Positions 5,251 to 60,078 of a stretch of 64,000 nt of DNA are shown one piece after another. The notes under the pieces are model-generated. The model saw only the letters and a program-made list of their open reading frames with translations, did no database searches and was not told the DNA's origin. The translations under genes were made by a program, and so were the position numbers. The stretch is from the NCBI GenBank assembly GCA_002372135.1, contig DFIN01000001.1, forward strand, positions 478-64,477. The letters run 5' to 3'. The DNA comes from Bacteroidales bacterium UBA3696. Its GTDB lineage: Bacteria; Bacteroidota; Bacteroidia; Bacteroidales; Paludibacteraceae. Every line of letters starts with the position of its first letter. The stretch's first letter is position 1.

Positions 5251-5273
5251 AGGTCGTTTTGTACTTTCGATTG

Positions 5274-5705
5274 TTATGCTTCGGTAAACAAATCGTCTAA
5301 TGTGACTTGTTGTACCACATCGTTGGCGTACTCATTAGTCTGTAAACCGAAGGGGGTAACAAACGTTAGTTGCATGCTTTTATTCATGCCGGTCTCCGCC
5401 TGAAACGAGAACACACGATTTTTCAGTTTCTCATATTCACTTTTTTTAATAAGATAGGGTGTTGACGCGAACTTCATTTCGCAGATGTTAATTATTCCGT
5501 CCGCTCTATCTAAGATGAGGTCAATTTGCGCAGCGGGAGAGGAATAAGTGCTTCTCCATTGGTAGTGATTACGAAAATGCTCTGTTATTAAATAGGTTTT
5601 ACCTACGCGTCGCCTTCCATATACAGCTATGAACTCCGCTTTCGAGCTTTTCGCCAAAAGATTCAATTGCCGTTGTTCCTCCGATCTTCCGATAATAGCA
5701 GTCAT
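5274..5705 (-). pseudogene. AAA-ATPase (DUF234-type) remnant with internal deletion
   Basis: 143 aa. The Walker A N-terminus (FIAVYGRRRVGKTYLITEHF) is fused directly to the C-terminal module (QIDLILDRADGIINICEMKF...VTLDDLF). Family members I recall are about 400 aa. Confidence 0.55.
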
Positions 5706-5772
5706 ATTTATGACTCTTCTAAAATCCTATGCAAAGGTACAGCCTTTTTCCCTATATGCAAGAAAAATTTAC

Positions 5773-5873
5773 GAGTTTAAGCCAAAATAGATGATTTTTG
5801 TACAACTTTGGCTGAAACTGTTTTATGAGTTTAAGCCAAAACAAATGAATTTTATACTACTTTGGCTGAAACT
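5773..5873. repeat. two tandem 47-bp units (54-bp period), each an imperfect 13-bp inverted repeat
   Basis: GAGTTTAAGCCAAAATAGATGATTTTTGTACAACTTTGGCTGAAACT (5773-5819) and GAGTTTAAGCCAAAACAAATGAATTTTATACTACTTTGGCTGAAACT (5827-5873). Confidence 0.85.
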
Positions 5874-5944
5874 CATGCTTCTTTTAAGGTAATCCAATAT
5901 GTCAAAGGTCGTTTTGGGTGCTGTTTGCAACCCGTCTTTTGTAC

Positions 5945-5970
5945 CCCTGCGGGAAACCAATCCCGCAGGG
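5945..5970 (-). terminator. hairpin downstream of the 6007 stop (weak terminator candidate)
   Basis: CCCTGCGGGA-aaccaa-TCCCGCAGGG, 10-bp perfect stem. No clear U-run. Confidence 0.3.
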
Positions 5971-6006
5971 CTAATTATATTAGTGCTTAATACACTAACA
6001 TGTGCA

Positions 6007-8076
6007 TTAGCGCAGTTCAGCACCTTGTGCGTTATACAGCGTGCCGTTGCGCTCAATGTACAATACGCCGTTGCGAATGACCTTGCGGCTGTCCGTATCT
6101 GTGCCTGCTTCCACATTCTCCACATCGGTGGGAGTGCCCTCTTCCTCAACGGGTTGGAAAGTGGCGGTGATGACGAGGTCTGACAAAACTATTGAGAACT
6201 CGCGGTCCCAGCCGATGAAGTGATAGCCTTCGATATGAGGAACATCAGGCGGAGTGGCATTCAAGCCTTCTTCAATCTGTTGCGAGGCAAGCAGCGGGTC
6301 GGTGGCTGCCGGTGCACGCTTGGGACTGCCGAGTTGCGTACCGTCTGCGCCATAGAAATTGACGGTGTATTGGGGGGGCAGTGGGCAGTTCTTCAAATAG
6401 AGCGGTGAAACCTATCACATTGTCGCTGATGGCGGGTATGTTGAGATAAGCGGTGTCAGCATAGTCGGTGTTCCATGCTTCCCAACCTTTGAAGATATAG
6501 CCGTCCATAGTGGGGGCTTCGGGCAGCACTTTGCCTCCATAATTAGCAATCTCGGCATAGTATGCGTTGTTGATTTTTGCAAAGCCTTCAGCCGAGAAGT
6601 CAAATGGCTTGGGATAGCCGTTGCCATATACGCCGTCAAAGACGACCATTTTTTGAGCCACATTAATCTCGATAGTTTCTTTCTCGCCCGGGCAAATGAT
6701 GTAGGCAATACCTTTTTCGTCAATGCCGCTATAAAGGTCGCGTGAGGGTTGGTTCACGCGCGCATAGGTTAAGCAAGCACCATTGGCGCCTGACAGTTGG
6801 CTGATACGCACGGTATCATTATATCGTGCAGGGATAATTAACTCACTATCACCCATATTGATGTCGCGGTTGGTGTTCCATGCCATAAGCGATTTTTCCA
6901 TATCGCTTCCCTCAATTTTACTCTTAATGGTCAGGGCATAATACACATCGTATTCAAACGGGTCGCTATACACTCGTTCACCGTTGCAAACGACATAGAA
7001 GCGGAAGGCAAAACCGGGCACGAACGGGCTCTCGTAGTAGTTGCGAAATAGAGCGTAGCGGCTTGTGGCATACGCATTGTGGCTGTGAAGGTCAGCGAGT
7101 CGCCTACCATGGCGCGTGTTTGGCTGTTCTTGAATGCTTTGCTGTATTCAATCGCCATCGGATTGACGCTGTTGGTGTGAACAGTCTGACGGACATTAAA
7201 CTTATAATCACCACCTTGCAGTGTGTAGGTGGCATAGACGCTGAGGTTGCTGTGCACATTGGTGTAGTCGCGACTCCATTTCTTGAACTTCATTCCGTTC
7301 AGCGAAGACGTTTGGGGAGCGGTAGCATCATCGCCACATTCCACTTGTTCGCTCTTCAGCAGTGTGCCGTCCGCATTGACGAAACGCACCGTGTAGGTCT
7401 TTGTCTTGGTGCTAATCCACAGGTTGCAGGCAGGTTGTCTGATGAATCTTCCAAGTCAGTTTGCCCGTCCCCTGAATATGAGCGGTGATGACCATCTGCT
7501 CCCCGTAATTGACAAAGTCGGGGGTAGTAAGCGCAAGGTCAATGAGTGGCATATTAACATCTACATAGTTGTGCAGTCCGGGACGACTAACGCCGGATTG
7601 AATCTCGTATGGAGCCCAAGCCTTGAGCAACTGATCATGGTAATGTGCTTGCACGCAAATGCGAAGGTTCGTATAGCCTTTTTGGTAACACATAGCAATG
7701 GCATCACTGATATTGTCAATGGTAACCGCCCCACCTTTTCGAGTAGATTTATAAAAAGTGTTGACACGCTCAATCAAAGTGTTGGCAAACTGATAGGTTG
7801 ATACGCGTTTGCCATAGTCGTAAGAAACCGTGTCCTTGGAATACTGCGAATTGGACTCAACTTTGAAGAATTGGCTATTGTCGGTACGATATTAGATACG
7901 AACTTCATAATAGCGCTGCAGTTCGACATTCGGATAGAATGTGTCCTCAAAGGTGAGTTGCTTGGTCTTTTCGTCGTACTTGATGCTTTGCAAGTACTTC
8001 GGATAGGGCAGGCTGTTGCCCATGCCGGTGTTTGCCCATAAGCCGACAGCCATGACGGTTGCCGCAATGATACCAT
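6007..8076 (-). pseudogene. paralogous InlB-B-repeat surface protein, at least four frame disruptions
   Basis: Track ORFs 7774-8076, 7412-7777, 6931-7389, 6272-7021 and 6007-6396 tile one gene. 6272-7021 is paralogous to 3727-4470 (VVFDGVYGNGYPKP.DF, GYIFKGW). Tail is RKVIRNGVLYIERNGTLYNAQGAELR. The N-terminal limit is uncertain. Confidence 0.65.
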
Positions 8077-8174: not shown

Positions 8175-9059
8175 TTATTCTCTTTGTTGAGTCCGAAACA
8201 ATTTTGGTGTCAACCCGATACGTCGTTTGAAAAAACGGCAGAAGGAAGGTGAGTCGGCATAGCCAAGGAAGTCGGCTATTTGTTGTACAGAAAGGTCAGG
8301 GCGCGTTGAAAGTAGAAACTTAGCTTGCGAGGCAAGGTATTGCTCAATATAGTCGCTGGCAGACAGACCGATTGTGTTTTTGATGATAACAGCGAAATGC
8401 CGTGTCGTCAGGTTGAGCCGGTTTGCATAGAAAGCCACTTCGTGTTGCTCGCGGTAGTGCTTGGCAACAAGAGCGCAGAAATGACTAAATAGTTGGTTGC
8501 TTTTGCTATCTTTATGGTATTGCTCATCTATGTTTGCACGGCAGGCATCCACCATCTCCGCCATGATGTTGGTCTGCATAATGAGCATTTCGTGGCGTTT
8601 AGGGTATTGGGATATAGGTGTGCGACTGATGATATCAATGAGGTCTAACACTTTTGTTATTCGGCTCATGTTGTCTTCATTAATCGTACAGGCAGGAATG
8701 TCGTGAAACTTCGAGTAGTCGTGTGAGAGACGATGTTGCGTCAGTTTGCTGTGAAATGCCGTAGAGTGGACAATGATTGACACATCGTAGTCGGGGCTGC
8801 TCTCTAACGGATGAATGATATGATTGGGGAGTACTACCGCCACTTCGTTGGAAGCAAAGCATATCTCCCGCATATCATATAAGGCTCGTGCCGTACCGCT
8901 ATGGCAGATATAAACCATCAGGTAAGGCGATAGAATATCTTGGTGATAGACAGGGAAACCTTTCACATGCCGCATCACAACCACTTCCGCTGTCCGAATT
9001 GTGCGCTCCATCTCGTCAAATAATTGTTTCGTTTCCATGAAATCGTCATTTTTGAACAC
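8175..9059 (-). CDS. AraC family transcriptional regulator
   Basis: 294 aa with a C-terminal double HTH (LSASDYIEQYLASQAKFLL...IADFLGYADSPSFCRFFKRRIGLTP). Divergent from the 9212 operon. Confidence 0.9.
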   Translation of the reverse strand: MFKNDDFMETKQLFDEMERTIRTAEVVVMRHVKGFPVYHQDILSPYLMVYICHSGTARALYDMREICFASNEVAVVLPNHIIHPLESSPDYDVSIIVHSTAFHSKLTQHRLSHDYSKFHDIPACTINEDNMSRITKVLDLIDIISRTPISQYPKRHEMLIMQTNIMAEMVDACRANIDEQYHKDSKSNQLFSHFCALVAKHYREQHEVAFYANRLNLTTRHFAVIIKNTIGLSASDYIEQYLASQAKFLLSTRPDLSVQQIADFLGYADSPSFCRFFKRRIGLTPKLFRTQQRE

Positions 9060-44786: not shown

Positions 44787-46364
44787 ATGAAGATAACCAT
44801 GAAAACATTACTTGCTATTCTTGACGGGTGGGGCATCGGCTTGCCGAATGATGCCAATGCTATCTATTCCACCTCTACGCCCCATTGGGACGCATTACTC
44901 AATACTTATCCCCATAGTCAGTTGCAAGCCTCCGGGCTTAACGTAGGGCTGCCCGACGGGCAAATGGGCAACTCTGAAGTGGGACACCTCAATATAGGTG
45001 CCGGACGAGTAGTCTATCAGGACCTTGTTAAGATTAACCGCGCCATTGAGGACGGTTCCATCAAACGTAACCCCGAAATCGTGTCGGCTTTTACCACTGC
45101 GCAAAAACAGGGTGTCCGCCTGCATATCATGGGCTTGACCTCTAACGGCGGCGTTCACTCATCCTTAGAGCACCTCTTTGCCCTCTTGGATATAGCCAAG
45201 GAGTACGGCTTGGAAGGCAAGACGTTTGTTCACTGTTTTATGGACGGACGCGACACTGACCCGCGTTCCGGCATCGGCTTTATTGACCAATTGGAAGCGC
45301 ACATGCAGCAGTCCTGCGGCGAAATAGCCTCCATACAAGGCCGTTTCTATGCCATGGACCGCGATAAACGCTGGGAGCGTATCCAAAAAGCATACGACTG
45401 CCTCGTGCACGGGCAAGGCGACCATTATGAAAGCATGCACCAAGCCATGCAAGCCTCCTACGACAACGAGGTTACCGACGAGTTTATCCTGCCTATCGTT
45501 CATACCCGCAACGGGCAGCCGATTGCCACCATTCAGGAAGGCGATGTGGTCATCTTCTTCAACTACCGCAACGACCGTGCCCGCGAAATCACCGAAGTGC
45601 TCACCCAGAAAGACCATATTGATATGGGCATGCGTACCCTGCCCCTGCATTACTACTGCATGACTCCCTACGAATCCTCATTCACGGGTGTGCATATCCT
45701 ATTCCCCAAAGATAACGTTACCAATACATTGGGCGAGATTCTTGCCCGTCAGGGGATGCGTCAGTTGCGTATTGCCGAAACGGAGAAGTTTGCCCATGTT
45801 ACTTTCTTCTTCTCCGGCGGACGCGACCTGCCCTTTGAGAACGAGGACCGCATACTCATTCCTTCTCCAAAAGTGAAGACCTATGACATGCAACCCGAGA
45901 TGTCTGCTCCCGAAGTGGCGGCTGCCTTGTGCGAGGATATGGATACGCAAAAGCATGAATGTATCATCCTCAATTTTGCCAACGGCGACATGGTAGGTCA
46001 TACGGGTGTGTATGAGGCTATTCGTCAGGCGGTTGTGACTATTGATATCTGCCTTGACCGTGTCGTCAAGTCGGCGCAGAAGAATGGGTATGAGGTTATT
46101 ATTATTGCCGACCACGGCAATGCCGATGTGGCGAAGAACGAGGATGGGTCTAAGAACACCCAACACTCGCTCAATCCCGTGCCCTTCATCTATGTCCCCT
46201 CGCCTCTGAATCATCCCGAGTGGAATGGTCAGACACCTGATTTGCAGTCGCTTTATCGTATAAGTGACGGTATTCTTGCCGATGTGGCACCCTCTATGTG
46301 CGCCTTGCTCGGTATTGACCAACCTGAGGAAATGACCGGTAAGAACCTCATTGCATGCAACTAA
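44787..46364 (+). CDS. gpmI: 2,3-bisphosphoglycerate-independent phosphoglycerate mutase
   Basis: [34 protein letters not shown] box at 44760-44767. ATG 44787 or 44799. Confidence 0.9.
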
Positions 46365-47263
46365 AAGGCAGATACGCCCACTCACGCCCCTTCGTCAAGG
46401 TCTTGCAGTGGATGGCAGTTATCGTCTGCTTAACCTTGCTTTCCGTGCTGCTCATAAACCTATTGCAAAGTCTGACGGGGTGGAGTAGTGCCGATATGGC
46501 TTATTTGAAGACCGTGCAGGCGTTGCAGACGGTCAGTGTTTTTCTCTTGCCCCCCCTGCTGTTGGCTTATGTTTGGTCGGACAAACCTTGGCAATGGTTG
46601 CACCTTGCTAAGGTTCGCCCCGTAGATAGTCTGGTTCAGAAAAAAATCACGGCGGTTTGGTGGTTAGTGCCCATCAGTATCGTGTCGGCGATGCCGGCTA
46701 TTAACCTGCTCGTGTATATCAACGAGCAGATTAGTCTGCCCGCTTTCTTAGCCCCTATGGAGGCGTGGATGCAGCAGATGGAGGAGAATGCGGCTGTGCT
46801 AACCGAGCGTTTCTTGCAGGTGGACAATGGTTGGGGCTTGCTTTTTAATCTGTTCGTAATGGCTTTGCTGCCGGCATTGGGGGAAGAACTGACTTTTCGC
46901 GGCATCCTGCTCAACGGTTTGAACCGGCATCAGCAGCTACACCTTGCCATCTGGGTGGTCGCCGTCCTCTTCTCGGCTATGCACATGCAGTTCTACGGCT
47001 TTATTCCTCGTATGTTGTTAGGGGCATACTTCGGCTATTTGGTGGTATGGAGCGGTTCGCTGTGGTTGCCAGTATTGGCGCACCTAACCAATAATGCGAT
47101 GGCTGTTATCGGCAATTATGTCGTTTTTAAGACCCAATCGGATACCCAATGGCTTGAGTCGTTTGGCACCGGGGATACACTATGGGTCGGAATAGTCAGT
47201 CTGCTCGTTTCGCTGTTCATGATAGCGATTATTTCCCGTCTTATGAATAAACGTTGCTGTTAG
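46355..47263 (+). CDS. CPBP-family intramembrane glutamic endopeptidase
   Basis: EELTFRG, FSAMH and HLTNN motifs in a multi-TM protein. Confidence 0.8.
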
Positions 47264-47293
47264 ATCGCTTCGCTGTTAGAAGTTAGAAATAAT

Positions 47294-47327
47294 TGGCACC
47301 AATCAAACGACCCTTTGATTGGTGCCA
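47294..47327. repeat. perfect palindromic site: 14-bp arm / 6-bp spacer CGACCC / 14-bp arm
   Basis: TGGCACCAATCAAA-CGACCC-TTTGATTGGTGCCA. The palindrome extends to 17 bp per arm (47291-47330). No following U-run, so it is not a canonical terminator. Confidence 0.85.
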
Positions 47328-47478
47328 ATTATTTAAGTTGAAAGAAGATGGCAAGTATGTAAGTGGAAAAATTTGAGAATTATGCAGTATTACTGTATTC
47401 AAATAGTTAGTAAATTCTCCAAAAACACCACTCAAAATGCTTGAATATAAATGAAAAATCAAAAAATGTGCATGAAAA

Positions 47479-47510
47479 TTTGGCTGTTTTTGTTTCATGT
47501 TGTAATTTTG
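47479..47510 (+). promoter_or_regulatory. candidate promoter inside the IR-flanked segment, pointing at the giant gene
   Basis: TTTG (47479-47482), 20-nt spacer, TAATTTTG (47503-47510). I found no equivalent box on the opposite strand of the segment. Confidence 0.45.
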
Positions 47511-47614
47511 CAGCCACATTAGATGTGAAGGATTGCAGTTCTGCAAATCACGAAGTGTGAATTCTTTAATACAAAAAAATGAGGGATAAGAATCCCTCAT
47601 GACCACAAAAACAG

Positions 47615-47648
47615 TGGCACCAATCAAAGGGTCGTTTTTTAGGTGCCA
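47615..47648. repeat. second site: 14-bp arm / inverted spacer GGGTCG / degenerate arm
   Basis: TGGCACCAATCAAA-GGGTCG-TTTTTTAGGTGCCA. 47615-47637 is the exact reverse complement of 47305-47327 (23 bp). The second arm matches 11/14. Confidence 0.85.
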
Positions 47649-47950
47649 CACGGGGTGCGAATATTGCCGGGGATGAATAGTCCTTTGACGTATTGGATTA
47701 CCGTAAAAATTGTATTTTTTCAACGAAAAAGTTGAAAAACGCTTATTATATCATATCGAATGTCGGCGGTCGGAATGTCTCGGGTGTTAGGATTTGGGGA
47801 TAACCAATACCGCCTTTATGAAGACGGTGAGATGTCCTCTGAAGCGATAGGCAAGATGTTATTTTCAATGGCTGCACGAGTTCTTCTCTTTCGGAGGATT
47901 TGTGAATAAAGTGGCGATGTGATAAGACGCTCGTTCAAGAGCAGAAAATG

Positions 47951-47990
47951 AAAGCGGTAATCCAATCAGTGAGCGGATTACCGCTTTTTT
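47951..47990 (+). terminator. intrinsic-terminator-like hairpin in the 5' leader of the giant gene
   Basis: AAAGCGGTAATCC-(11 nt)-GGATTACCGCTTT followed by TTT. Ends 42 nt before ATG 48033. Confidence 0.55.
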
Positions 47991-48032
47991 ATGTGCACGG
48001 TGCACGCTACTAACTCAAAAAACAATATACGT

Positions 48033-51000
48033 ATGAAAAAATTTTTCTCCTTTTGTTTGGTGATTGCCGCCGTGTTTCTGACCCTATCTCCGCAGATAGC
48101 GCGGGCGCAGTTAAATGAGTATTTTTCTATCCGAAGTACGTGGTCGGGGGCAACTACGACCATTACGTTCAACGGGAGTGTCAGTGTGGATTTGTGGTAC
48201 TCTACCGACAAGTCCAACTGGACGCAGATTACCGAGACAACCAATATCCCCACGTACAACAAAACCTATTTCAAGGGAAACAACCCGACCGGTTTCAGCA
48301 CAAGTACAACGGATTTTGTGCAGTTCTTGGCAGGAGGGACAAGTCAGGTTTACTACCTTGAGGGCAACATCATGTCGCTCATTAACGGCAATGATTTTGC
48401 GACTAATTATTCCACAATCCCGTCTGATTATTGCTTTTATTCCTTGTTTACCAATAAAGCGGGGTTGAGTAGTGGATATACAGAAACCAATTGGTATGCC
48501 GGCGATTTACTACTACCGGCGGATTATCTGACTCCGCACTGTTACGAGTCGATGTTTGAGCGAACATACGTCAAGACGCAGCCGCAACTGCCTGCGCAGC
48601 ATTTGGCGGAGTATTGCTATCATAAAATGTACTATACCAGTATGTCATTGGATATGCGTACCTCTTATCCCGCTACGCCGATAGAGTATATCCTTCCGGC
48701 GGAGGAGTTGGTGCCGCACTGCTATGAGCATATGTTCGGCATATACAACAACAATCCGACTATTTACCAATATGTAACCATTATGGCAACCTCTTTGCAA
48801 GACCGCAGAGGTGAAGATATTGAAAATTGCCTGAAAGAGATGTTCTATTATGGTGTCGCTCTTAGCTCTACATCCGGCAAATATACCAAATATTTTGTAC
48901 AACTGTTCTTTACGAATTGGGGGGATGTCAGCAAGACAACTTGTCCGACATACAACTGGTTCGGTGGAAATTATAATTGTTCCGGTAACTATTTCTTCTA
49001 TGACGCAAACCTTTCTTGGTCAGTATCTAATATTAAATTGGGATACAGCGGTATTAAATCTCAATTCCCGAATGGAGCATATAGTTGCGAAACGAACAAT
49101 TGTACGAGCTTCTGGGTGCCTGAAGATTACAACTACCTCACTTTCGACTGTAAGACCAACGGCGGCACATGGGAGGCGGATGACGACTACAACACCGACC
49201 TCCGCCGCGTGGTGCGTGCCGGCTACACTGCCAAGACGGTGCCTGCCGCTCCGCACAAGTTAGGTTGCACCTTCCTCGGCTGGTACACCGCTCCCTCTGG
49301 AGGTACGAAAGTGGATAACGCCACTATCCTCTCACAGACAACGGCGCAAACCTACTACGCGCAGTTCATACCTAACGATGTGGACTACACCATCACCATC
49401 GCCAACGGCGAACACGGACACGTAGTCGTAACGCGCAACAACGAACCGACTGCCACTTACACCACCACCTCTTCGGTGCACAATATGTCCGAACTGACTA
49501 TCACTGCCGTTCCCGATGCAGGCTACCGCTTCAAAGCATGGACAGGCGATGCCGCCACTATCAAAACAGCTGAAGACAATGGCACCACCTACTACCTTGT
49601 TAACGACATCACCGTAGGTGCCACCTTCGAAGCCGACGAATGCACCGTGACGATTAACACCCCTGCATCCAACGGTACGCTGGCTGCATCCGACGGCACG
49701 AACAACTACGCTTCGGGCAATACCTACACTTTCAACCGCCAATTAGACCTCAACAAGGTGCTGACCTTTACTGCCACACCTGCCACACACCGCCTCTTCA
49801 CAGGCTTCACGGTAACGGGTGCGGAATTGAGCAACATTACAGCAGCCCACACCCCGTATCAATATGATGATGTGGTAACGGCTCAATACACCATCACCGC
49901 CTCCACACCGGACGAGGTGACGGTAGACGCGACCTTCGTCAAACCGACCTACACAGTCTCCACGTCCATCACCGGCAAGAACGGCGGTTATGTCACCCTG
50001 ACAGCCGACGGCTATGCTGACCAGACCGGCAGCGGAACGTATGACATCGACACCCGCGTGACCCTGACCGCCACGCCGAACAACGCGATGTTCAAATTCG
50101 TCAAATGGACTGACAATGACAGCGACAACCCCGTGCGTGTCATTACAGCGCTGACTAGTGATATAGCTCTCTCAGCCGAGTTTGACTTGGAGGGCGAACT
50201 CTGGTCCGCTCCCGCTACGGTGGATGTCTATTCGTCAGGTGTCACCCCGACCTGCACTTCTACTATTACAACATCCAACTATCGCATCCTGTATAATTTG
50301 GATCCCGTTAAAGGTAGTGACAACATTACCTATACGCCTGTGGATATGGGTGCAGGTGTCGCTTGGGCGGACAAGAACATCGGTGCCACCGACCCGACCA
50401 AGGCGGGCAGTTACTTCTATTGGGGAGGCACAAAAGCCTACGGGGAAGAAGGTTATACAACGGTATCAAGTTCAAACTACTATAAAGGAGTGGCGGATAT
50501 GACGGCGACCACATCAACAGCTGTCGCCGCGCAGTATCCTTTACCCACTGAAGCTGATGCCGCAACGCAAAAGATGGGCGGGCAATGGCGTATGCCTACT
50601 TACTATGAGATGAATAATCTCATTTCTTCCACTTACACAAGTAGTGCGCAGGTTAATTATAACTATACAGTTACCAACAAGTACTACACAGACGATAAGA
50701 TTTTTATTCCTGCCGGAGGACGATATGAAACCACTTTGTCCAAAGGTGCGGCATACCTTTGGACAAGTACCGTAGCTGGTAAGAACGGAGCCAGCAGCAA
50801 ACCGTGGGTATATTATAATCACGCGATGAGAGGCAATGTTACTACCACTGGAAATTCTGTGGCTTATTATGCTCTGCCTGTCCGTGCCGTCTATGTCCCG
50901 TCGTTCGAGACCTGCACGCTGCAAGTGCTTGTCTATTGGGCATCTACGCTGAAATGGACTTACAACTACATCTGTGAGGTCGGTCAGACCGTCACCATCC

Positions 51001-54000
51001 GTCAGCATCCTGCCGCAAGCGGATACAAGTTGTCGGCTTGGAGGGAGAACACTTACTCGGGTACCGAACTCTCCACGGACAATAGTTATACTGTGACGCT
51101 TACAGGGAACCAGACGATAGCGGCGCATTACATCTCCGCCACCACCTATCAGCTGACCACCAAAGCCTCTCCGCTCAAGGGCGGAACGGTGGATGGCGGT
51201 GGTTATTACCCAACCGGTACAAGCGTTACGCTTACCGCCACACCGAATGCCAACTACCGCTTTGTGCGCTGGTCGGACGGCAATACCGACAATCCGCGTA
51301 CTTACACTACCACAAACGCGGCTGTTACGCTTACGGCGGAGTTTGAAGGCTATGTGACGGGCGTTACATCCTCTACAGCCAACGTGGATGTGTTCGCTTA
51401 CACCGCTAACACCAACTGCTACAAGATTCTCTACGACCTGCCATCAGAGGTGAACGGCTACCGTCCTGTGGATATGGGTAATGGCGTGGCCTGGGCTAAC
51501 AAGAACCTCGGTGCAGCCGATAGTACGGCTTCGGGCAACTACTATGTCTGGGGCACGACCTCTCCGTTCACATCGGTGGCCACAGGCACTTATTATGCAG
51601 GCGCAATGGATATACCGCTGACCACCTCAACGACTCTCAGTGCGCAATATGCTTTGCCTGCCGATTCGGATGCCGCTACGGTGAATATGGGTGAGCGGTG
51701 GCGTATGCCGAATTATGCGGAAATCTATTACCTCGCCAATCCTAACGGAGCCACGGAAGCAGGTGCTGCCGCAACGGGTTTCACATATACCAACAAACTC
51801 AGTGGCGAGAAATTGTTCATTCCGGCAGCAGGTTACCATAACAAAGTTGGGAATACTCCCTCCTCAACACCTACATCCGGAACGTACTTCTGGGGTAGCA
51901 CGGTTGGAAAATTCAATGCCAACGGCTATCAGTGTGTAGCTTCCTGCTATCAAAGCGGTGGGGCGTTGTATAACAATACAACATACGGATATGTGTATTA
52001 CGCCATGCCTGTCCGTGCTGTCTATGTGCCGCCGTTCGAGACCTGCACGCTGAAAGTAACCGTGACAGGTCTTAACCAGGTAGGCAACGGCACAAGCACC
52101 TATTACTATTATTATATCTGCGAAGTAGGTCAGCGCATTCGTATCACCGCGCAACCGCACTCCGTGGGTTCTACGGGCTTTACCTACGCCTTCACGCAGT
52201 GGACCGATGATGACAATAGCAGTGCCGTGGTGGGGACGGACCCGACTCTCGACTTCGTCATCGCGGGCAACACCAACTACACCGCCACTTTTGCTTCCAC
52301 CACCAATTTCTCCACCATTCACGCTTTGCCACAACCCCGCTCCGGCGGATATGTCTATGGCGTAGGGCGTTATAAGAATGGCGTTACTACGCGGCTGCAC
52401 GCTGTGCCGGAAGAGGGCTGGACTTTCGTCCGCTGGGAGGACAACAACTCTACCAACCCCTACCGTGAGATAACCGTCAATGGCGATGCATCCTACAATG
52501 CCGTCTTCACCTCTGCCGTACCCGCTGCGGCTTCGGCACACAAGTACGTCAATGTATGGCACGAAGCAACCACCACCACAACGGAAACACTCTATGACGG
52601 TTCGCCCCTTGAGACTTGCACGCTGACGGTCAAGACTTATCAGTCGAATAGCGCCAAGGCTACCTACAACTTCGTTTGCGAAAAAGGACAAACCGTCACG
52701 GTGAGTGCGTTCACCAACACCGCCAACTACTCGCTCCTGCACTGGACCAATTTGGAGTACGACATAATGAGTTACGACCCGACAGTGGAGTTGGTGGTAA
52801 CGGAAGACATCACCTACATCGCTACGTTCTATACCACGCGTGCAACGACCCGTACACTGACGCTTGACTGTACGCCGCGAGAGGGAGCAATTTTTGATGG
52901 TGCTATTAAGGGGAACACCAACCATATCGGCGTGTATGAGGACGGTCAGGTGACCAAACTTGTCTGCCATCCGAATCCGCACTACCGCTTCCTCTATTGG
53001 GACGATGACCACTCGCTGACTGACACGGCGCGTATCGTCACTGTAACGGAGGATAGGACATATACCGCTGTATTGGAGATGGATTATGACCTCACTACCG
53101 TACATTCCGAGGATGCTTTCGCGCAGGTTTATCAAGGCGGTACTTATCAGGGTACGTACCTGCGTTACGCCCTGCCGGGCTATGATGCCAACGGCTACCG
53201 CCCCGTGGATGTGGGTGTCGGTGTGGCATGGGCGAACAAGAACATCGGAGCCGCTGACAGCACCAAGGCGGGCGACTATTTTGTCTGGGGTCTTACCACT
53301 CCCGCCACTACGGTCAGCAGCAGCGGAACCAACTACTGGACGGGTGTCACCTCAATGTCCTCAACCCTGACTTCAAGCAACACAGCTGTGCAGTATCCGC
53401 TTCCCGCCGCCAATGATGCCGCAACGCAGATTATGGGCGAGCGGTGGCGTATGGCGACTTATCAGGAGATATACAATCTGGCTAATGTGACAGGCAGCGG
53501 TTCCACCGAGGAAGGCCAGGCATCAGCAGGATTCAGATATACCAACAAGGAGGACAATTCGCAGTTCATCTTTATCCCTGCAGCCGGATGCAAGAAGACA
53601 TCGGGTACGGAAACGGTAACAACCGGTACAACCCACTTCTGGGGCAGCACGGTCAAGTCTGTCAGTGCCGCTTCATCCCAGCCTACATACTACTTGAATG
53701 GCGGTTGTTCAGCGGGTTCCACCACTTACTATGCATGGAACGCCATGCCAATCCGCGCCGTCTATGTGCCGCCGTTCCAGACCTGCTCCGTAACGGTGAA
53801 GACTCCTACCAATCAGTATATGTACATCTGCGAGGTAGGTCAGCGCATCACCATCACCGCTTTCTATGGGGCTGCCACGGCAACCAGTCAGAATTATCGT
53901 GTGCGTGACTGGATAGACCAGAACAATGTCATTGTTTCCACCGACCAGACCTATTCCTTCATCGCTCTGTCGAATGTGACACTGACAGTGAATTTTGTCG

Positions 54001-57000
54001 CTCCCACTACGAAACGCACGCTTACCTTCAATGTGTCGCCTGCCGGAACAGGTACAGTGAACAACCTTGCGACTTTTGTCGGCAACTATGAGGACGGTCA
54101 GCATGTGCGTATTCCCGTGAAGGCTGCGGAGAACTACCGCTTCTCGCATTGGTCGGACGATGAAAACAACACCGATCCGAATCGTATCTTCACTGCCACA
54201 GCCAATGCTACTTACACCGCAGTCTTCGAACCCGATGAAGCACAAGCCGCTGACGCACACATAGCACAGGCTGCCACTCGTGACACAACGAAGATTCTCT
54301 ATCCGCTGCCCGTATTGACGAAGAACAATATGTTCTATACGCCGGTGGATATGGGTACGGGTACCGCTTGGTGCGACTACAATGTGGGCGTTACCAATCC
54401 GACCAGTCCTAACGGATATTATTTCCTTTGGGGTGGAAATGCCAACAAGACTTCCACCTATAAGACAACCACTTACACATCAGGAGCAGTTACAAATACC
54501 ACAGAAGGCGGCGATTTGCCATACAACACCACTTACGATGCCGCTTTGTATCAAATGGGTACAGGTTGGCGCGTACCGAGTAAAGAGCAGTGGGATGCCC
54601 TTGTGGATAAGTGCTCAACGGAAACAGAGAACACTTTTGTCAATCCTACGGATGCTACTAAGTCCATCACCTTGCCTAAGGCGGGTTCGTATGCACCGAA
54701 TACCACATCCAATTATAGCACGCTATCCAATAATCCTGCTTTAGCAGCCTATTGGAGTCGCACTTTGGCTCATAAAGACAATACGGCATACAATAGTCAG
54801 CCGTGGTGCTATCTTGACGGAGAAGTGAAGTATGGCGCGGATATACCTATATCAGGTCGTCAAGGTTATGTCAGCTACGGTATGCCTGTCCGTGCCGTCT
54901 ATCAACCTTCGTTCACGCCTTGCACGCTCACCGTGCGTTACACCAACGATGAGGAAGTAACCCGCACCAATACCTATCTCTGCCAGCCCGGACAGCCCGT
55001 CCGCATCACAGCCATTCCGTCAGAAGGCTATGTCTTCAAGAAATGGAACGACAACGATACGCACGCCGAGCGCACTATCTTCATCTCTGAAGATATGACC
55101 CTCACCGCCGAGTTCGAGGAAGCCAATGCAGGTTCCGCTCTGATTATCACGCAGGTGAACAACGGCGAGTGGGGTAGTGTAACCGGCGGCGGCGAATATG
55201 ATAAAGGTGCTGCCGTGACGCTGACCGCACAACCCGAAGAGCATTACCACTTCGTTAAGTGGCAACTCAACGATGCGGACATAGTGGGCGGTGCCACGCT
55301 TAATTTCACCGCGACCGCTATCGCCACCTACAAGGCGTTCTTCGCCATTGACGAGCATACCCTCACCACAACCGCGACGAACGGAACGGTAACAGGCGGC
55401 GGTACCTACGACTACGGCACCACAGGCGTTACGCTAACTGCCACAGCCGACGACCATTACCACTTCGTCAAATGGCAACTCAACGGCGAGGACATACCGG
55501 GCGAAGCCTCCCTCACGGTGGACGTAACTGCCGATGCAACTTATAATGCCGTCTTCGCTATCGACCGCCATACGCTTTCCGTCACCGCTACCAACGGAAC
55601 GGCAACCGGCAGTGGCGAGTATGACTACGGCACCGTGGTAACGCTCGGCGTGACACCCGACGAACACTACCATTTCGTTTCGTGGTCGGACGACGGCGCA
55701 CAGAGCCACAGCGTAACCGTAACCGCTGATGCCGAATACACGGCAACCTGCTCTATTGACCGCTTCACGCTGACCGTCAACGGCTCGAACGCCACTGTCA
55801 CAGGTGCGGGCGAGTACGACTACAACACGCAGGTAACGGTTACCGTCTCGCCCGATATGGGCTATAACTTCGTCCGCTGGACCGACGGTGAGACCAACCC
55901 GTCGCGCATCGTAACAATGACGGAGAACAAGACGCTTGCTTATGAGACCGTTTATGTGCCTTCGTATGCGATTACGACCGTAGCCAACGGCGGTGTTATT
56001 TATCAGACAGCTGACCGCTACGAACAGCAGAACGGTCCGACTACCTATAGTTATATGAACGGTACGGTGCTGACCCTTGAGGTGGCTGCTTCCTTCGGCT
56101 ATGCGTTCACGGGCTGGTCAGATGGCAACAGCGACAACCCGCGTGTCGTAACCGTGACGGAGGCAAAGACCTACACCGCCGAGTTCGACGAGCAGACGCA
56201 TATCGTGTTCCATAAGACCACGGGTGTATTGGACTTCCCGACCTATGCGAAGAACACGTTTGCCGTTATAGGCGAGACAGACGATGTGACGTTCCGTCTG
56301 TACTTCAATACGGCTATCAGCACCAACAAGACCGACTACCTGTCGAACCTCTCGCTCGATGCTTCGCAGTCGTATATTCAACCTACGGTAGGAGCTAAAC
56401 GCACCATCGCTTCCGCGACCGTAGCGAATGTAGAATACTTCGGAAATCAGATTCGTGCGGCACACCTTACGGCAATGCTGACTGACACGGAAGGCAGAAC
56501 ATACGATGTGGATATCTATACCAATGAGATGATTAACTATGCCACCTATCAAGAAGATTATACGTATAAGTATTATTCGTCTTATTTGTCCACAGAGTCA
56601 AGTTGGGTAAGCGGTCGCACGCTATTCAAGGCAGGTGAAGAAAACAACTTCCCGCTGAATATAGTCAATGCCAACTACCATACCTTGGGTTATTGGTACA
56701 GCATTGCAGGTTCGTCCGCATACGATATTATCAATATCAAGTTGCAGTTTATAACGGACGAAAGCAAGCCCGGTGTTGTGCCGACAGGAGTTTATCCTAT
56801 CAATAGCACGCAACAACCCGGTACGGCTTTCATTGGTGTGATACCGTCTAACTACATAGAGCGTCAAACCAATAACAATGCATTGAACTATGGCTGTGTA
56901 GTCTTCCGGGATTACCACGACCAAAGCACCTATGTGCGTACAACAGACAACTGGACGCTGCGCGGCGGATATATTGAGGTAGTCAATGTGGACGAACAGT

Positions 57001-59606
57001 ACTATGTTCACGTTCACGCCACTGCTGACGCTTATCGCACCAACGGAGAAGCCGCCAATACATTGTTAGACTTCACTTTGGGTGGTAGCGGCAATAATGA
57101 CGTGCCGCAACCTGTTGCCATTACGCTTTCCGCACAAACCGTAGGTGGCGAGGCACTGACCGATGCCGTTACGGCTACCCTTGCAGGCGCAAGCAACTGG
57201 ACGGATGTCGAGATAGGTCAAGGCAGTCACACTTTCTTTAGCGGCAATACGCTCAACCTGACCGCCGCCAAACCCGGCTATGTGTTCAGCCATTGGACCG
57301 TAAACGGCATCACCGTGGCGGGCGAGGATTACACCTACGCTTATACGGTAGGCGCAGCCGATGCCGCCATCGTAGCCGTCTTCGAGTTGGATACCCGTCC
57401 GTTCTACACCATCGCTGCCGAGACAGGCGGTCGCGGTACGGCAACGCTCACGGCAGACGGCTACAAGCCGCAGACCGGCAGCGGCTATTATGCCGAGAAC
57501 ACCAACGTAACGATAACCGTTGCAGCCGGTACGGGGGCTACCTTCCTCGGCTGGGACGACAATAACGACGGCACGGTTGACAACACGCAGAACCCGCGCA
57601 CCGTTACCGCTACGGCAGACAAGACCTATACGGCAGTCTTCGGTCTCGAATCGGCTGACCAAGCAGTCAATGTCTATCAGGCGGCTGCGGCAGACACCAC
57701 CAAGATTCTCTATAACCTCGACCCGAAGACAGGTGCTGACGGACTGACCTACCAACCCGTGGATATGGGTTACGGCGTGGCTTGGGCAGACCGCAATGTG
57801 GGTGCAAATCAGCCGACCAATGTAGGTAAGTATTTCTATTGGGGCGATACCGAAGGACATACGTCGTTTAATGCCTATCAGGCTTTGAACACGAGTAGTT
57901 ATACTTCGGGTACGACCTTGACACCTGATTTGGATGCTGCCACGCAACAGATAGGAACGGCTTGGCGTATGCCGACAGATGAAGAGTGGCTCGATTTGAG
58001 AAAAAACACCACCCAATCGGCTGATCACGGTACATTTATGAATAAAACCTATGCAGGAAATACCATTTATTTGCCCGCGAGCGGATTCTATGGTACAACG
58101 TATAGGAATTTGTATCTATATGGCGATGAGGGTCCGTGGACTTCTAAATTATTTACTAACTACCGTTTCTATTGGTCAAGTGTTTATTTCGTGCAGAATG
58201 CTTCTAATGGTCTTGCTTTCCCATATACGTTTGAAGATGTCGAAGCCGATGCTAACAACTACTATCATGTCAATACAAACGTAACGCTCAACAGCACATC
58301 CTACGGCTTCTTCGACTGTTTCGGTATGCCTGTCCGCGCTATCTACGAACCTGAATATCCGACTTATACGCTGACTATCAAGGTTGGCGGGCAGCAGTAC
58401 AAGTACATCTGCCAAGCCGGTCAGAACATCACTGTAACCGCCAATGCCACCACTGAAGGTTATGTCTTCGACGAATGGAAGATGGAAGACGGTACCACCA
58501 CCGATGAGACGGATACCCACCTTGCTACCCGCACGTTCACGATGACCGGTAACATCACCCGCACTGCCACCTTCAAGGAGGGGCAGTCAACCTTCACCGT
58601 TACATGGAAGAACGCAGACGGTACGACCCTCGAAACGGATGAACAGGTAGAAGCAGGTGCTACGCCTGCTTACGATGGCGAAACACCCGCTAAGGTGTCC
58701 GACGAGACGTATTACTACACCTTCGTAGGTTGGACCGATGGAGTTACCGACTATGCCGCTGACGAGGCTCTGCCTGCCGTAACCGGCGATGTTACCTATA
58801 CAGCCCGTTTCCAAGCCTACTTACGTGAACTCCTGCTCTTGGATTCGGAGGATGCAGACTATTACGACAATATCCGTCTGCTGAACGGTCAGCACTTCGA
58901 GCAAATCACCTATCGTCGCTCCGTGGCATACACCAAGGACGACAACGGCAATGCACGTTGGTACACGCTCACCCTGCCTTTCAATGCAGACCAAAGCCAA
59001 TTAGCAACCAACGGGCTGCTCCGCAAGGTCTATGAATACCGCTATGCCGAAGGTTCGGCGGACGAGAACGACCATGTTACCTTCCACTTCCGCGCTGCCA
59101 CCTCTATCATAGCCGGACGTGGTTATCTGGTCAAAGCCACTTCGCTTATGCCTACCGACTATGCCTTCGCGGATGTTACACTCGATACGGGTAAGGATAC
59201 AGAAACGGATGTCAATAAACTCAAATACAATTCCGCTAACGCTTACAAAGAGAGTGGCGATATAGCCATCGTGGGTGTATTGCGCCACGGCACATTGAGT
59301 CAAGACGGACGCAAAGTGATGGGCTTGGCAAACAATAAGATTTGGTATCCGCACACGAATGGTAACCCCATGCCTGCTTACCGCGCGTACTTCTACAACC
59401 CCAATGCTACCAAGAATATACCTCGTGTACGCATTGTAGTAGAGGGTGAAGGAGAGACCGAGTTGGAAGTAGTGGATGGCGAACTCTATGATGCAGGCGG
59501 GGACGACCGCGCTCCCGGCAACAATGTGCGCAAGTACATGGAGAACGGCATTCTTATCATTGAGCGCAACGGCGAACGCTTCAACGCACAAGGAAAGAGG
59601 CTATAG
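48033..59606 (+). CDS. giant (3857 aa) modular surface protein: signal peptide, degenerate LRR region, InlB-B repeats, five FISUMP/DUF1566-like modules, shared C-terminal domain and tail
   Basis: MKKFFSFCLVIAAVFLTLSPQIARAQ. LP..L...CY..MF repeats. Many G/HY.F..W repeats. Five Y.PVDMG.GVAWA.KN.G...WRMP...E...L...FIPAAG...PVRAVY modules. Tail is VRKYMENGILIIERNGERFNAQGKRL. Uninterrupted 11.6-kb ORF. Confidence 0.9.
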   Translation: MKKFFSFCLVIAAVFLTLSPQIARAQLNEYFSIRSTWSGATTTITFNGSVSVDLWYSTDKSNWTQITETTNIPTYNKTYFKGNNPTGFSTSTTDFVQFLAGGTSQVYYLEGNIMSLINGNDFATNYSTIPSDYCFYSLFTNKAGLSSGYTETNWYAGDLLLPADYLTPHCYESMFERTYVKTQPQLPAQHLAEYCYHKMYYTSMSLDMRTSYPATPIEYILPAEELVPHCYEHMFGIYNNNPTIYQYVTIMATSLQDRRGEDIENCLKEMFYYGVALSSTSGKYTKYFVQLFFTNWGDVSKTTCPTYNWFGGNYNCSGNYFFYDANLSWSVSNIKLGYSGIKSQFPNGAYSCETNNCTSFWVPEDYNYLTFDCKTNGGTWEADDDYNTDLRRVVRAGYTAKTVPAAPHKLGCTFLGWYTAPSGGTKVDNATILSQTTAQTYYAQFIPNDVDYTITIANGEHGHVVVTRNNEPTATYTTTSSVHNMSELTITAVPDAGYRFKAWTGDAATIKTAEDNGTTYYLVNDITVGATFEADECTVTINTPASNGTLAASDGTNNYASGNTYTFNRQLDLNKVLTFTATPATHRLFTGFTVTGAELSNITAAHTPYQYDDVVTAQYTITASTPDEVTVDATFVKPTYTVSTSITGKNGGYVTLTADGYADQTGSGTYDIDTRVTLTATPNNAMFKFVKWTDNDSDNPVRVITALTSDIALSAEFDLEGELWSAPATVDVYSSGVTPTCTSTITTSNYRILYNLDPVKGSDNITYTPVDMGAGVAWADKNIGATDPTKAGSYFYWGGTKAYGEEGYTTVSSSNYYKGVADMTATTSTAVAAQYPLPTEADAATQKMGGQWRMPTYYEMNNLISSTYTSSAQVNYNYTVTNKYYTDDKIFIPAGGRYETTLSKGAAYLWTSTVAGKNGASSKPWVYYNHAMRGNVTTTGNSVAYYALPVRAVYVPSFETCTLQVLVYWASTLKWTYNYICEVGQTVTIRQHPAASGYKLSAWRENTYSGTELSTDNSYTVTLTGNQTIAAHYISATTYQLTTKASPLKGGTVDGGGYYPTGTSVTLTATPNANYRFVRWSDGNTDNPRTYTTTNAAVTLTAEFEGYVTGVTSSTANVDVFAYTANTNCYKILYDLPSEVNGYRPVDMGNGVAWANKNLGAADSTASGNYYVWGTTSPFTSVATGTYYAGAMDIPLTTSTTLSAQYALPADSDAATVNMGERWRMPNYAEIYYLANPNGATEAGAAATGFTYTNKLSGEKLFIPAAGYHNKVGNTPSSTPTSGTYFWGSTVGKFNANGYQCVASCYQSGGALYNNTTYGYVYYAMPVRAVYVPPFETCTLKVTVTGLNQVGNGTSTYYYYYICEVGQRIRITAQPHSVGSTGFTYAFTQWTDDDNSSAVVGTDPTLDFVIAGNTNYTATFASTTNFSTIHALPQPRSGGYVYGVGRYKNGVTTRLHAVPEEGWTFVRWEDNNSTNPYREITVNGDASYNAVFTSAVPAAASAHKYVNVWHEATTTTTETLYDGSPLETCTLTVKTYQSNSAKATYNFVCEKGQTVTVSAFTNTANYSLLHWTNLEYDIMSYDPTVELVVTEDITYIATFYTTRATTRTLTLDCTPREGAIFDGAIKGNTNHIGVYEDGQVTKLVCHPNPHYRFLYWDDDHSLTDTARIVTVTEDRTYTAVLEMDYDLTTVHSEDAFAQVYQGGTYQGTYLRYALPGYDANGYRPVDVGVGVAWANKNIGAADSTKAGDYFVWGLTTPATTVSSSGTNYWTGVTSMSSTLTSSNTAVQYPLPAANDAATQIMGERWRMATYQEIYNLANVTGSGSTEEGQASAGFRYTNKEDNSQFIFIPAAGCKKTSGTETVTTGTTHFWGSTVKSVSAASSQPTYYLNGGCSAGSTTYYAWNAMPIRAVYVPPFQTCSVTVKTPTNQYMYICEVGQRITITAFYGAATATSQNYRVRDWIDQNNVIVSTDQTYSFIALSNVTLTVNFVAPTTKRTLTFNVSPAGTGTVNNLATFVGNYEDGQHVRIPVKAAENYRFSHWSDDENNTDPNRIFTATANATYTAVFEPDEAQAADAHIAQAATRDTTKILYPLPVLTKNNMFYTPVDMGTGTAWCDYNVGVTNPTSPNGYYFLWGGNANKTSTYKTTTYTSGAVTNTTEGGDLPYNTTYDAALYQMGTGWRVPSKEQWDALVDKCSTETENTFVNPTDATKSITLPKAGSYAPNTTSNYSTLSNNPALAAYWSRTLAHKDNTAYNSQPWCYLDGEVKYGADIPISGRQGYVSYGMPVRAVYQPSFTPCTLTVRYTNDEEVTRTNTYLCQPGQPVRITAIPSEGYVFKKWNDNDTHAERTIFISEDMTLTAEFEEANAGSALIITQVNNGEWGSVTGGGEYDKGAAVTLTAQPEEHYHFVKWQLNDADIVGGATLNFTATAIATYKAFFAIDEHTLTTTATNGTVTGGGTYDYGTTGVTLTATADDHYHFVKWQLNGEDIPGEASLTVDVTADATYNAVFAIDRHTLSVTATNGTATGSGEYDYGTVVTLGVTPDEHYHFVSWSDDGAQSHSVTVTADAEYTATCSIDRFTLTVNGSNATVTGAGEYDYNTQVTVTVSPDMGYNFVRWTDGETNPSRIVTMTENKTLAYETVYVPSYAITTVANGGVIYQTADRYEQQNGPTTYSYMNGTVLTLEVAASFGYAFTGWSDGNSDNPRVVTVTEAKTYTAEFDEQTHIVFHKTTGVLDFPTYAKNTFAVIGETDDVTFRLYFNTAISTNKTDYLSNLSLDASQSYIQPTVGAKRTIASATVANVEYFGNQIRAAHLTAMLTDTEGRTYDVDIYTNEMINYATYQEDYTYKYYSSYLSTESSWVSGRTLFKAGEENNFPLNIVNANYHTLGYWYSIAGSSAYDIINIKLQFITDESKPGVVPTGVYPINSTQQPGTAFIGVIPSNYIERQTNNNALNYGCVVFRDYHDQSTYVRTTDNWTLRGGYIEVVNVDEQYYVHVHATADAYRTNGEAANTLLDFTLGGSGNNDVPQPVAITLSAQTVGGEALTDAVTATLAGASNWTDVEIGQGSHTFFSGNTLNLTAAKPGYVFSHWTVNGITVAGEDYTYAYTVGAADAAIVAVFELDTRPFYTIAAETGGRGTATLTADGYKPQTGSGYYAENTNVTITVAAGTGATFLGWDDNNDGTVDNTQNPRTVTATADKTYTAVFGLESADQAVNVYQAAAADTTKILYNLDPKTGADGLTYQPVDMGYGVAWADRNVGANQPTNVGKYFYWGDTEGHTSFNAYQALNTSSYTSGTTLTPDLDAATQQIGTAWRMPTDEEWLDLRKNTTQSADHGTFMNKTYAGNTIYLPASGFYGTTYRNLYLYGDEGPWTSKLFTNYRFYWSSVYFVQNASNGLAFPYTFEDVEADANNYYHVNTNVTLNSTSYGFFDCFGMPVRAIYEPEYPTYTLTIKVGGQQYKYICQAGQNITVTANATTEGYVFDEWKMEDGTTTDETDTHLATRTFTMTGNITRTATFKEGQSTFTVTWKNADGTTLETDEQVEAGATPAYDGETPAKVSDETYYYTFVGWTDGVTDYAADEALPAVTGDVTYTARFQAYLRELLLLDSEDADYYDNIRLLNGQHFEQITYRRSVAYTKDDNGNARWYTLTLPFNADQSQLATNGLLRKVYEYRYAEGSADENDHVTFHFRAATSIIAGRGYLVKATSLMPTDYAFADVTLDTGKDTETDVNKLKYNSANAYKESGDIAIVGVLRHGTLSQDGRKVMGLANNKIWYPHTNGNPMPAYRAYFYNPNATKNIPRVRIVVEGEGETELEVVDGELYDAGGDDRAPGNNVRKYMENGILIIERNGERFNAQGKRL

Positions 59607-59675
59607 AAGTAAGAGGTTAGACCACTGCGTTGTTAGAAGTAAGAACCTAACCTCTAACAGCGTAGCGGTCTATCT

Positions 59676-59713
59676 AAAAGGAGAGTGTGCCAAGATTGGC
59701 ACACTCTCTTTTT
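59676..59713. terminator. bidirectional intrinsic terminator after the giant gene
   Basis: AAAAG-GAGAGTGTGCC-aagatt-GGCACACTCTC-TTTTT. Confidence 0.7.
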
Positions 59714-59745
59714 AGATATTCCGTTTTTATTACCCTAATATCTGA

Positions 59746-59883: not shown

Positions 59884-59913
59884 TTCAACAAGATTAATAT
59901 TTACAAAAAAAAG

Positions 59914-59984
59914 AGCGGCATAAGGGAGTCGAACCCTCCTCCTCAGCTTGGGAAGCTGATGCACTACCGATGTGCTAATGCCGC
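59914..59984 (-). tRNA. tRNA-Gly (anticodon CCC)
   Basis: Hand-folded 71 nt: GCGGCAT/ATGCCGC acceptor, GCAC/GTGC D stem, TCAGC-TTCCCAA-GCTGA anticodon arm, GAGGG-TTCGACT-CCCTT T arm, discriminator T. No encoded CCA. Confidence 0.85.
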
Positions 59985-60078
59985 AATTATTCGTTATCAA
60001 ATACGGCGCAAAAGTAGAGCAATTAGCTGGGTGTAGCAAATTTTTTGCAAAAAACTTGGCATTTTTCTTGCAACCCGC

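Follow-up and report, generated by a model that had tools for sequence, protein, structure and literature searches.

A probable invertible promoter between 34-bp dyad sites ahead of the gene for a giant surface protein of an uncultured Bacteroidales bacterium

Phase-variable promoters are a means of surface diversification in gut Bacteroidales and are well charted in cultured human-gut species; to our knowledge, they are hardly charted in uncultured rumen lineages. In Bacteroides fragilis, invertible promoters consist of a short segment bounded by inverted repeats, which carries a promoter of the Bacteroidetes -33/-7 type and is located beside genes for surface structures (PMC4747536, PMC12632263). 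Many distant promoters are acted upon by master invertases, i.e. by Mpi (13 regions), Tsr0667 and Tsr19 (PMC4747536). The locus addressed here is located in a 64-kb stretch of DNA (64,000 nucleotides; hereafter the window), between the gene of an Rce1-like CPBP intramembrane protease (46355–47263, plus strand; PF02517), which is the upstream neighbor and the last of an iPGM-CPBP gene pair, and the gene of a giant surface protein. We propose, with a probability of roughly 0.7, that positions 47328–47614 between these two genes form a site-specific invertible promoter (inverton), which acts as a phase-variation switch. As in the Mpi, Tsr19 (IVp-I/IVp-II) and Tsr0667 systems of B. fragilis, distant loci share the repeat and would be served by one recombinase, which is not necessarily encoded adjacently. 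The locus differs from the B. fragilis systems by a terminator-like hairpin and an apparently decayed cassette, which intervene between promoter and gene, and by its host, seemingly an uncultured rumen Bacteroidales bacterium. Moreover, its site, TGGCACCAATCAAA-CGACCC-TTTGATTGGTGCCA, is unrelated to the Mpi-type repeat ARACGTWCGT.

Further described systems resemble single aspects of the locus. Core sites of tyrosine recombinases comprise two inverted arms and a short asymmetric center, as in loxP and FRT (13-8-13) or dif (11-6-11), and identical centers that are inverted in the partner sites predict inversion; fimS of E. coli, which is served by FimB and FimE, is an invertase switch of this kind. 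Serine invertases of the Hin, Gin and Mpi type use sites such as hix and gix, which consist of a dyad of about 26 bp with a 2-bp crossover and usually cooperate with an enhancer. Switches of the cwpV type in Clostridioides difficile rely on an orientation-dependent terminator. Finally, the pdif modules of Acinetobacter plasmids and integron arrays are composed of small modules, often encoding toxin-antitoxin pairs, which carry short conserved repeats and occur in varied contexts.

The left putative recombination site of the locus possesses a core at 47294–47327, in which two 14-bp arms flank a 6-bp spacer. Application of a repeat finder and reading of positions 46900–48100 revealed that the palindrome is perfect and extends beyond the core arms, resulting in 21-bp arms at 47287–47334. 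When folded as RNA, the site reaches -29.3 kcal/mol. The right putative site (47615–47648) reads TGGCACCAATCAAA-GGGTCG-TTTTTTAGGTGCCA; its outer arm is degenerate with 11 of 14 matching positions, which is a property of all sister right sites (see below) as well. The spacers of the two sites, CGACCC and GGGTCG, are reverse complements of each other. Three nucleotides of the outer arm, the spacer and the inner arm of the left site (47305–47327) form a perfect 23-bp inverted repeat with positions 47615–47637 of the right site, and in a longer form this repeat comprises 41 nt at 85%. It encloses 287 bp. Both sites, the 11/14 arm, the reverse-complementary spacers and the 23-bp repeat had been proposed in a preliminary description of this DNA, and all of them were found as described. 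The 14-mer of the arms, for which a search had been suggested there, is confined to the two sites within the 64 kb, and allowing up to two mismatches yielded four matches versus 0.59 expected. Likewise, a 22-mer with up to three mismatches matched only the two sites in the window, with no match expected. In addition, the whole window contains only two long-range inverted repeats (at least 20 nt long, at most 800 bp apart), i.e. the repeat described above and an adjacent one at a cassette boundary. Therefore, the site pair and its inverted repeat exceed chance expectation. The arrangement is that of an inverton, in which inverted repeats surround a short intergenic segment of about 100–700 bp.

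The enclosed candidate invertible interior (47328–47614) is AT-rich, with a G+C content of about 30% as compared to about 50% in the flanks. On its plus strand it carries a promoter of the Bacteroidetes type (47479–47510), which can be read as TTTG-N20-TAATTTTG(C) or as TTTG-N20-TAATTTTGC and which faces the right site and the giant gene. The promoter fits the published -7 consensus TANNTTTGY (PMC12632263). Motifs of the type TTTG-N19-21-TAnnTTTG occur eight times in the window versus 0.55 expected, and 47479–47510 is the sole canonical match on either strand of the 770-bp interval between the CPBP gene and the ATG of the giant gene, which bears out the earlier proposal of one promoter without counterpart on the other strand. 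The segment thus contains an outward-facing promoter of host type beside a drivable gene, as invertons do, with a terminator-like hairpin intervening before this gene. A second element, deduced from module alignment, adjoins the site opposite to the promoter exit (47335–47351, plus strand; AAGTTGAAAGAAGATGG). This promoter-distal motif is possibly a site for an accessory protein and could then correspond to the accessory site of a serine invertase system. Finally, the minus strand encodes a hairpin followed by a T-run (ATGAGGGATTCTTATCCCTCAT; 47569–47600; -13.2 kcal/mol), which according to the alignment is present in the window module only and absent from the sister modules. As in the cwpV-type switch, this hairpin is predicted to terminate transcription in one orientation only; unlike in the latter, the segment also carries a promoter, and the terminator is not kept in the sister modules.

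Scanning of JGI metagenome contigs with a 20-mer common to both sites delivered three short contigs, and protein-guided look-ups delivered more. Four independent modules were obtained in this way: that of the window, L083, L085 (also L119) and L090/L095 (also L084 and L091–L097). All of them share one plan, comprising a left dyad (CGACCC), an AT-rich interior of 160–310 bp with a promoter, a distal motif and a right dyad (GGGTCG) with slightly degenerate outer arm. The left site of the window is also present in L085 and L090. The promoter sequence TTTG-N20-TAnnTTTG is kept in 4/4 modules, and so is the promoter-distal motif, which is AGTTGAAAGAAGTTGG-like and reads CCAACTTCTTTCAACT in the other orientation.

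Comparison of these modules by blastn revealed a change of strand. The right flank of the window (47605–47718) aligns in plus orientation with L085 (275–390) and L083 (335–432). The adjoining part aligns with the minus strands, i.e. 47294–47518 with L085 (318 to 132) and 47294–47510 with L083 (368 to 69). Accordingly, the right site and about 70 nt of right flank are collinear with L083 and L085, while the window interior is on the opposite strand. Flipping of 47305–47637 in silico rendered the window module collinear with L083, L085 and L090. Relative to the window, the interior is inverted in all three sister modules, and the promoter, which points rightward to the cargo in the window, points leftward in L083, L085, L090 and L095. 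As the strand change falls inside the sites in the comparisons with L083 and L085, the breakpoints are located within the sites. The right outer arm (TTTTTTAGG in the window, TTTTTCAGG in L085) travels with the conserved right flank rather than with the interior, indicating that the breakpoint is internal to the site and that the element was not flipped as a whole. Identity between modules amounts to 92–100% in the sites and to 59–81%, with many indels, in the interiors. The spacer is invariant in every recovered site, and the arms exhibit few substitutions, which are non-compensatory (left inner arm of L085; all right outer arms). The much stronger conservation of the sites as compared to the interior and the non-compensatory nature of the arm changes argue for selection on the DNA sequence and not on hairpin stability, a pattern that would be expected for protein-recognition and crossover sites. 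The central idea of the preliminary description, namely that a promoter segment inverts between recombinase-type sites, is supported by the opposite interiors of the sister modules, by the breakpoints inside the sites and by the far stronger conservation of the sites. Cassette arrays of more distant Paludibacteraceae (L099–L116) contained neither a TGGCACC-type site nor another promoter between inverted repeats.

According to the mechanism that we propose, a recombinase encoded outside of the 64-kb window would bind the two 34-bp dyad sites as dimers. Strand exchange in or beside the CGACCC/GGGTCG centers would flip the interior together with both inner arms, leaving the outer arms in place. 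In the present orientation, the promoter at 47479–47510 would fire to the right, through the weakened right site, toward the giant gene, and its transcripts would have to pass a terminator-like hairpin at 47951–47992, where a motif at 47678–47703 is a possible antiterminator. In the flipped orientation, the promoter would fire to the left and antisense into the end of the CPBP gene. At the same time, the hairpin with T-run of 47569–47600 would lie on the plus strand behind the left site and act there as a terminator, which may insulate the giant gene from CPBP read-through.

At the window locus, the ON orientation was found in 6/6 assemblies that cross or enter the segment (window, L001, L002, L086, L087, L124); L001, L002 and L087 are identical to the window and L086 represents a strain with 98% identity. 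No OFF assembly of this locus was retrieved when the CPBP, giant and ApbE proteins were used for exact-protein look-ups, as all hits were ON or ended before the segment. The opposite orientation is seen in sister modules only, and ongoing inversion at the window locus is inferred. The predicted OFF form carries 47305–47637 in reverse-complemented form, with a left junction at which TTTGATTGGTGCCA, also written GAAATAATTGGCACCAATCAAACGACCCTTTGATTGGTGCCA, is followed by CTGTTTTTGTGG. The strain L086 deviates at 4261–4292 by a C-to-T exchange just inside the segment and by a G-to-A exchange in the right inner arm (TGACACC), equivalent to window positions 47612 and 47617, respectively. With the latter exchange, the perfect repeat becomes shorter, and switching could be diminished or locked.

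The same site pair and promoter are found at a second locus, L090 393–925 (also L095; L084, L091–L097). This locus is placed between the 3' end of a gene encoding a giant-protein paralogue, whose C-terminus is similar to that of the giant protein of the window, and a four-gene operon for a 267-aa protein, an Hsp70-like protein, a membrane protein and an SH3_3 protein, followed by rimP-nusA-infB. No match to this operon was obtained in PADLOC or NCBIfam. The three samples in which this locus was detected are those of the window locus, and its tetranucleotide composition is compatible; it probably belongs to the same genome or to that of a very close relative. Its promoter aims away from the operon. 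Only L090 and L095 read through the locus, both with the promoter leftward (OFF). All other contigs of this locus start in the right site, two at position 858, three at 865 and two at 875. Position 858, at which L084 and L091 (146-kb scaffold) start, is the first base that the predicted ON and OFF forms share, the predicted ON junction being CCTGCAAAAACA followed by GTGGCACCAATC. These starts are what orientation heterogeneity at the L090 locus predicts and are suggestive in this respect. Contig ends are also seen among the Logan contigs (k=31), of which L088 and L089 end at window position 47323, and L093, L094 and L096 start at L090 position 865. We considered these ends as inversion signatures and rejected them, because they coincide with the points where 31-mers become wholly site-internal; consequently, they reflect identical sites at other loci of the same samples and not inversion. 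Judged from these ends, the contigs imply further such loci, at least one of which would have another perfect left-type site.

No tyrosine or serine recombinase (Pfam families Phage_integrase and Resolvase) was detected among the about 45 ORFs of the window, with relaxed thresholds applied to unannotated ones, and none among the genes called on the scaffold over the adjoining 10 kb (74 kb in total). Hence, the earlier statement that the window encodes no recombinase held and extends to the following 10 kb. The corresponding suggestion that the enzyme acts in trans is supported by the multi-copy nature of the site family in the same samples. Since the members of this multi-copy family have near-identical sites, one trans-acting 'master' invertase is implied, which appears to be the natural reading of a site family distributed over several loci. 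As for its class, the sites share the arm/asymmetric center/arm plan of tyrosine core sites, with centers of 6–8 bp that are identical and inverted in the partners, a likeness in geometry alone and with arms of 14 bp in our case. This 14-6-14 geometry together with the identical inverted asymmetric centers would slightly favor a tyrosine recombinase. Alternatively, a serine invertase may cross over at the central AC. This dinucleotide is asymmetric, as required for such an enzyme, and the dyad symmetry ends 2 bp short of it on each side.

The candidate regulated gene (48033–59606, plus strand) encodes a protein of 3857 aa with Listeria-Bacteroides/InlB B-repeat domains. Its start had been placed at 47991, but is likely the ATG at 48033, from which a signal-peptide-like N-terminus (MKKFFSF...) is read. 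Pieces of the protein gave no match in PADLOC or NCBIfam. The -7 box of the promoter is separated from this ATG by 523 nt, which include a right flank (47649–47720, plus strand) containing G-rich GGGGAT-type repeats. The flank is common to L083 and L085 and collinear with them although the interior is flipped, and it includes the cassette 5' boundary motif (47678–47703, plus strand; TAGTCCTTTGACGTATTGGATTACCG). It is followed by an apparently decayed cassette body (47721–47950, plus strand) without canonical promoter, which contains a 49-aa ORF without family match; the homologous interval in L083 and L085 harbors toxin-antitoxin genes with a promoter of their own and the same closing hairpin. 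In the window, this terminator-like hairpin (47951–47992, plus strand) has a 14-bp stem, a U6 run and -22 kcal/mol. It is homologous to the cassette-end hairpins of L083, L085, L099 and L107 and is contained in both the MFE and the centroid structure of the whole leader. As a whole, positions 47650–47992 look like one decayed cassette. It is plausible that the promoter, as presently oriented, is ON for the giant gene; this assignment is uncertain because the decayed cassette and the strong terminator-like hairpin are located between the promoter and the ATG at 48033.

The 5' motif at 47678–47703 is complementary to the 5' half of the hairpin at 47951–47992. In 5/5 cassettes examined, the predicted RNA duplex of motif and terminator is stronger than the terminator itself, and among the cassettes compared, the motif of the window fits best to its own terminator. 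As the cassette promoters are located downstream of the 5' motif, the latter is carried only by transcripts that start upstream, e.g. at the switch. On the basis of these RNA predictions, the motif might serve as antiterminator. The same complementarity could equally reflect terminal repeats of mobile cassettes. The giant surface-protein genes of the clade lack a canonical TAnnTTTG promoter just upstream and exhibit a small palindrome 30–70 nt before the ATG, which may have a regulatory role or represent a non-canonical element of a promoter. Such palindromes are found at window positions 47993–48005 (GTGCACGGTGCAC) as well as at L107 8003–8020 and L109 5344–5361 (CGCGTACGTGTACGCG). Given this constellation in the relatives, the giant gene may have another promoter.

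Additional elements were observed in the surroundings. Purine-rich degenerate repeats (GTTAGAAGTTAGA / AGAAGTAAGA) occur in the left flank of the window locus (47277–47293), at L090 575–621 and at window positions 59606–59660, that is, just outside of left sites, in interiors beside sites and after giant-gene stops. Behind the giant gene, a hairpin with 28-nt arms and T-runs on both sides (59666–59723) resembles a bidirectional terminator, followed by a tRNA-Gly(CCC) gene (59913–59984, minus strand) with its own Bacteroidetes promoter (60009–60040). At the other end of the window, adjacent ORFs on the minus strand (1609–8076) exhibit weak matches to Flg_new repeats and to Por_Secre_tail (T9SS sorting). 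They look like a second large surface-protein gene that was broken by frameshifts or stops, and an AraC-type regulator gene (8175–9059) adjoins them.

Contigs of related rumen Paludibacteraceae carry an identical HEPN-MNT toxin-antitoxin block, with at least five different neighborhoods (L107 5483–6405, L109 1321–2195; also L111, L113, L115, L116). It is always part of an array of small toxin-antitoxin, ATPase or defense-like genes directly 5' of giant Flg_new genes. Cassettes begin with the motif GnnCTTTGAYRTAYTGATATTACCG and end with a hairpin (GCGGTAATATCAGT...ACCGC-T-run), both together forming an inverted repeat. This arrangement resembles an integron-like or shuffling cassette array. Similar to pdif modules and integrons, the array beside the switch, but not the switch itself, consists of small toxin-antitoxin modules in different contexts; the cassette boundaries, however, are a 5' motif and a terminator hairpin rather than XerC/D or attC sites, and no integrase was seen. 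A far-reaching and in our view unlikely scenario unites these observations: the module would be a self-contained transposable invertible promoter, which its recombinase can insert at new loci and which heads an integron-like array of shuffling toxin-antitoxin and defense cassettes before giant adhesin genes. The 5' motifs would antiterminate only transcripts started upstream, so that transcription from the switch would pass all cassette terminators and reach the giant gene, whereas transcripts from within the cassettes would stop.

The features of the locus may also be explained without an active switch. Static repeats, e.g. terminator hairpins surrounding a promoter, could have undergone one ancient and rare homologous or illegitimate recombination, leaving behind a fossil inversion. 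This would agree with the single orientation per locus in all assemblies reading through (six ON at the window locus; L090 and L095 OFF), with the missing recombinase gene in the window and the next 10 kb, and with the left site, which at -29.3 kcal/mol sits where the terminator of the CPBP gene is expected. However, 23 bp are a very poor substrate for homologous recombination, and the 34-bp sites, including a non-pairing 6-nt center, are kept at 92–100% identity next to interiors that diverged to 59–81% with many indels. The arm differences are non-compensatory and thereby point to selection on sequence instead of hairpin stability, and the ends of two assemblies of the sister locus coincide precisely with the inner repeat boundary. 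On balance, we regard a fossil inversion as unlikely. A further view assigns the repeats to RNA, with the promoter driving a short non-coding RNA or leader and the repeats acting as stems or terminators therein. Indeed, compared with shuffled sequences, folding is significantly better for both sites and for several other hairpins, and in L090 a T-rich run follows the promoter-proximal site on the transcribed strand. Structured RNAs or pairs of intrinsic terminators should display compensatory changes and belong to a curated family, but the arms lack compensatory substitutions, and searches returned no Rfam family and only chance matches to miRNA hairpins far below threshold. In addition, the untranscribed site is as well conserved as the transcribed one, and an inverted interior with collinear flanks would be left without explanation, which makes a function at the RNA level very improbable.

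Mobility has to be considered as well. The module might be a small non-autonomous promoter cassette whose sites are the ends recognized by a transposase or integrase, in which case its orientation would reflect insertion and not switching. The module was found in at least three different genomic contexts, and identical sites exist at several loci in the same samples. Moreover, L125, which represents the orthologous locus in a relative with about 70% identity, does not contain the module. There, positions 700–1075 correspond to the L090 locus and retain the end of the giant paralogue gene and both terminator hairpins, with the site-promoter-site module missing entirely, from which it follows that the module was gained or lost between orthologous loci. 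MITE-like elements possess simple terminal repeats, duplicate their target and insert as a whole in either orientation; in contrast, each end of the module is a full dyad with the arm-spacer-arm design of recombinase core sites, and neither the window nor L090 shows a target-site duplication. In the comparison of the window with L085, the inversion is confined to the stretch between the site centers, and the right outer arm and 70 nt of flank are collinear, a pattern that insertion of the whole element in opposite orientation cannot produce. An insertion-determined orientation therefore appears quite improbable to us. Mobility and invertibility of the module are not mutually exclusive, and the preferred reading, a site-specific invertible promoter, would be compatible with a module that also moves.

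The exact 23-mer was without match among the GTDB species genomes (representatives). A scan of the same genomes with the CPBP protein detected relatives with at most 57% identity, the best being a yak-rumen Paludibacteraceae MAG, and none of them carries the site. Both scans together indicate that there is no close reference genome among the species representatives. Viral contigs and PLSDB plasmids gave no match. By exact-protein look-ups, the locus was traced to a handful of metagenome assemblies, i.e. the ENA SHIW14-1 series, ERZ123028xx and the Logan assemblies SRR873601 and SRR873595, which we take to be sheep-rumen data sets. The small number of carrying assemblies and their presumed origin suggest as the host a rumen member of the Bacteroidales that is uncultured and rarely sampled. 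Most likely, the site family has not been recorded before, while the type of switch, the Bacteroidales inverton, is well known.

The locus thus appears to represent a new family of recombination sites, a 34-bp dyad with the consensus given above, which marks loci before a giant adhesin-like gene, an Hsp70-like operon and toxin-antitoxin cassettes. The comparison illustrates that differences in orientation between paralogous modules can support the assignment of an inverton without recourse to reads. The site sequence provides a handle to find the whole regulon and the invertase in rumen metagenomes, and it allows one to ask whether giant surface proteins of the rumen are phase-variable.
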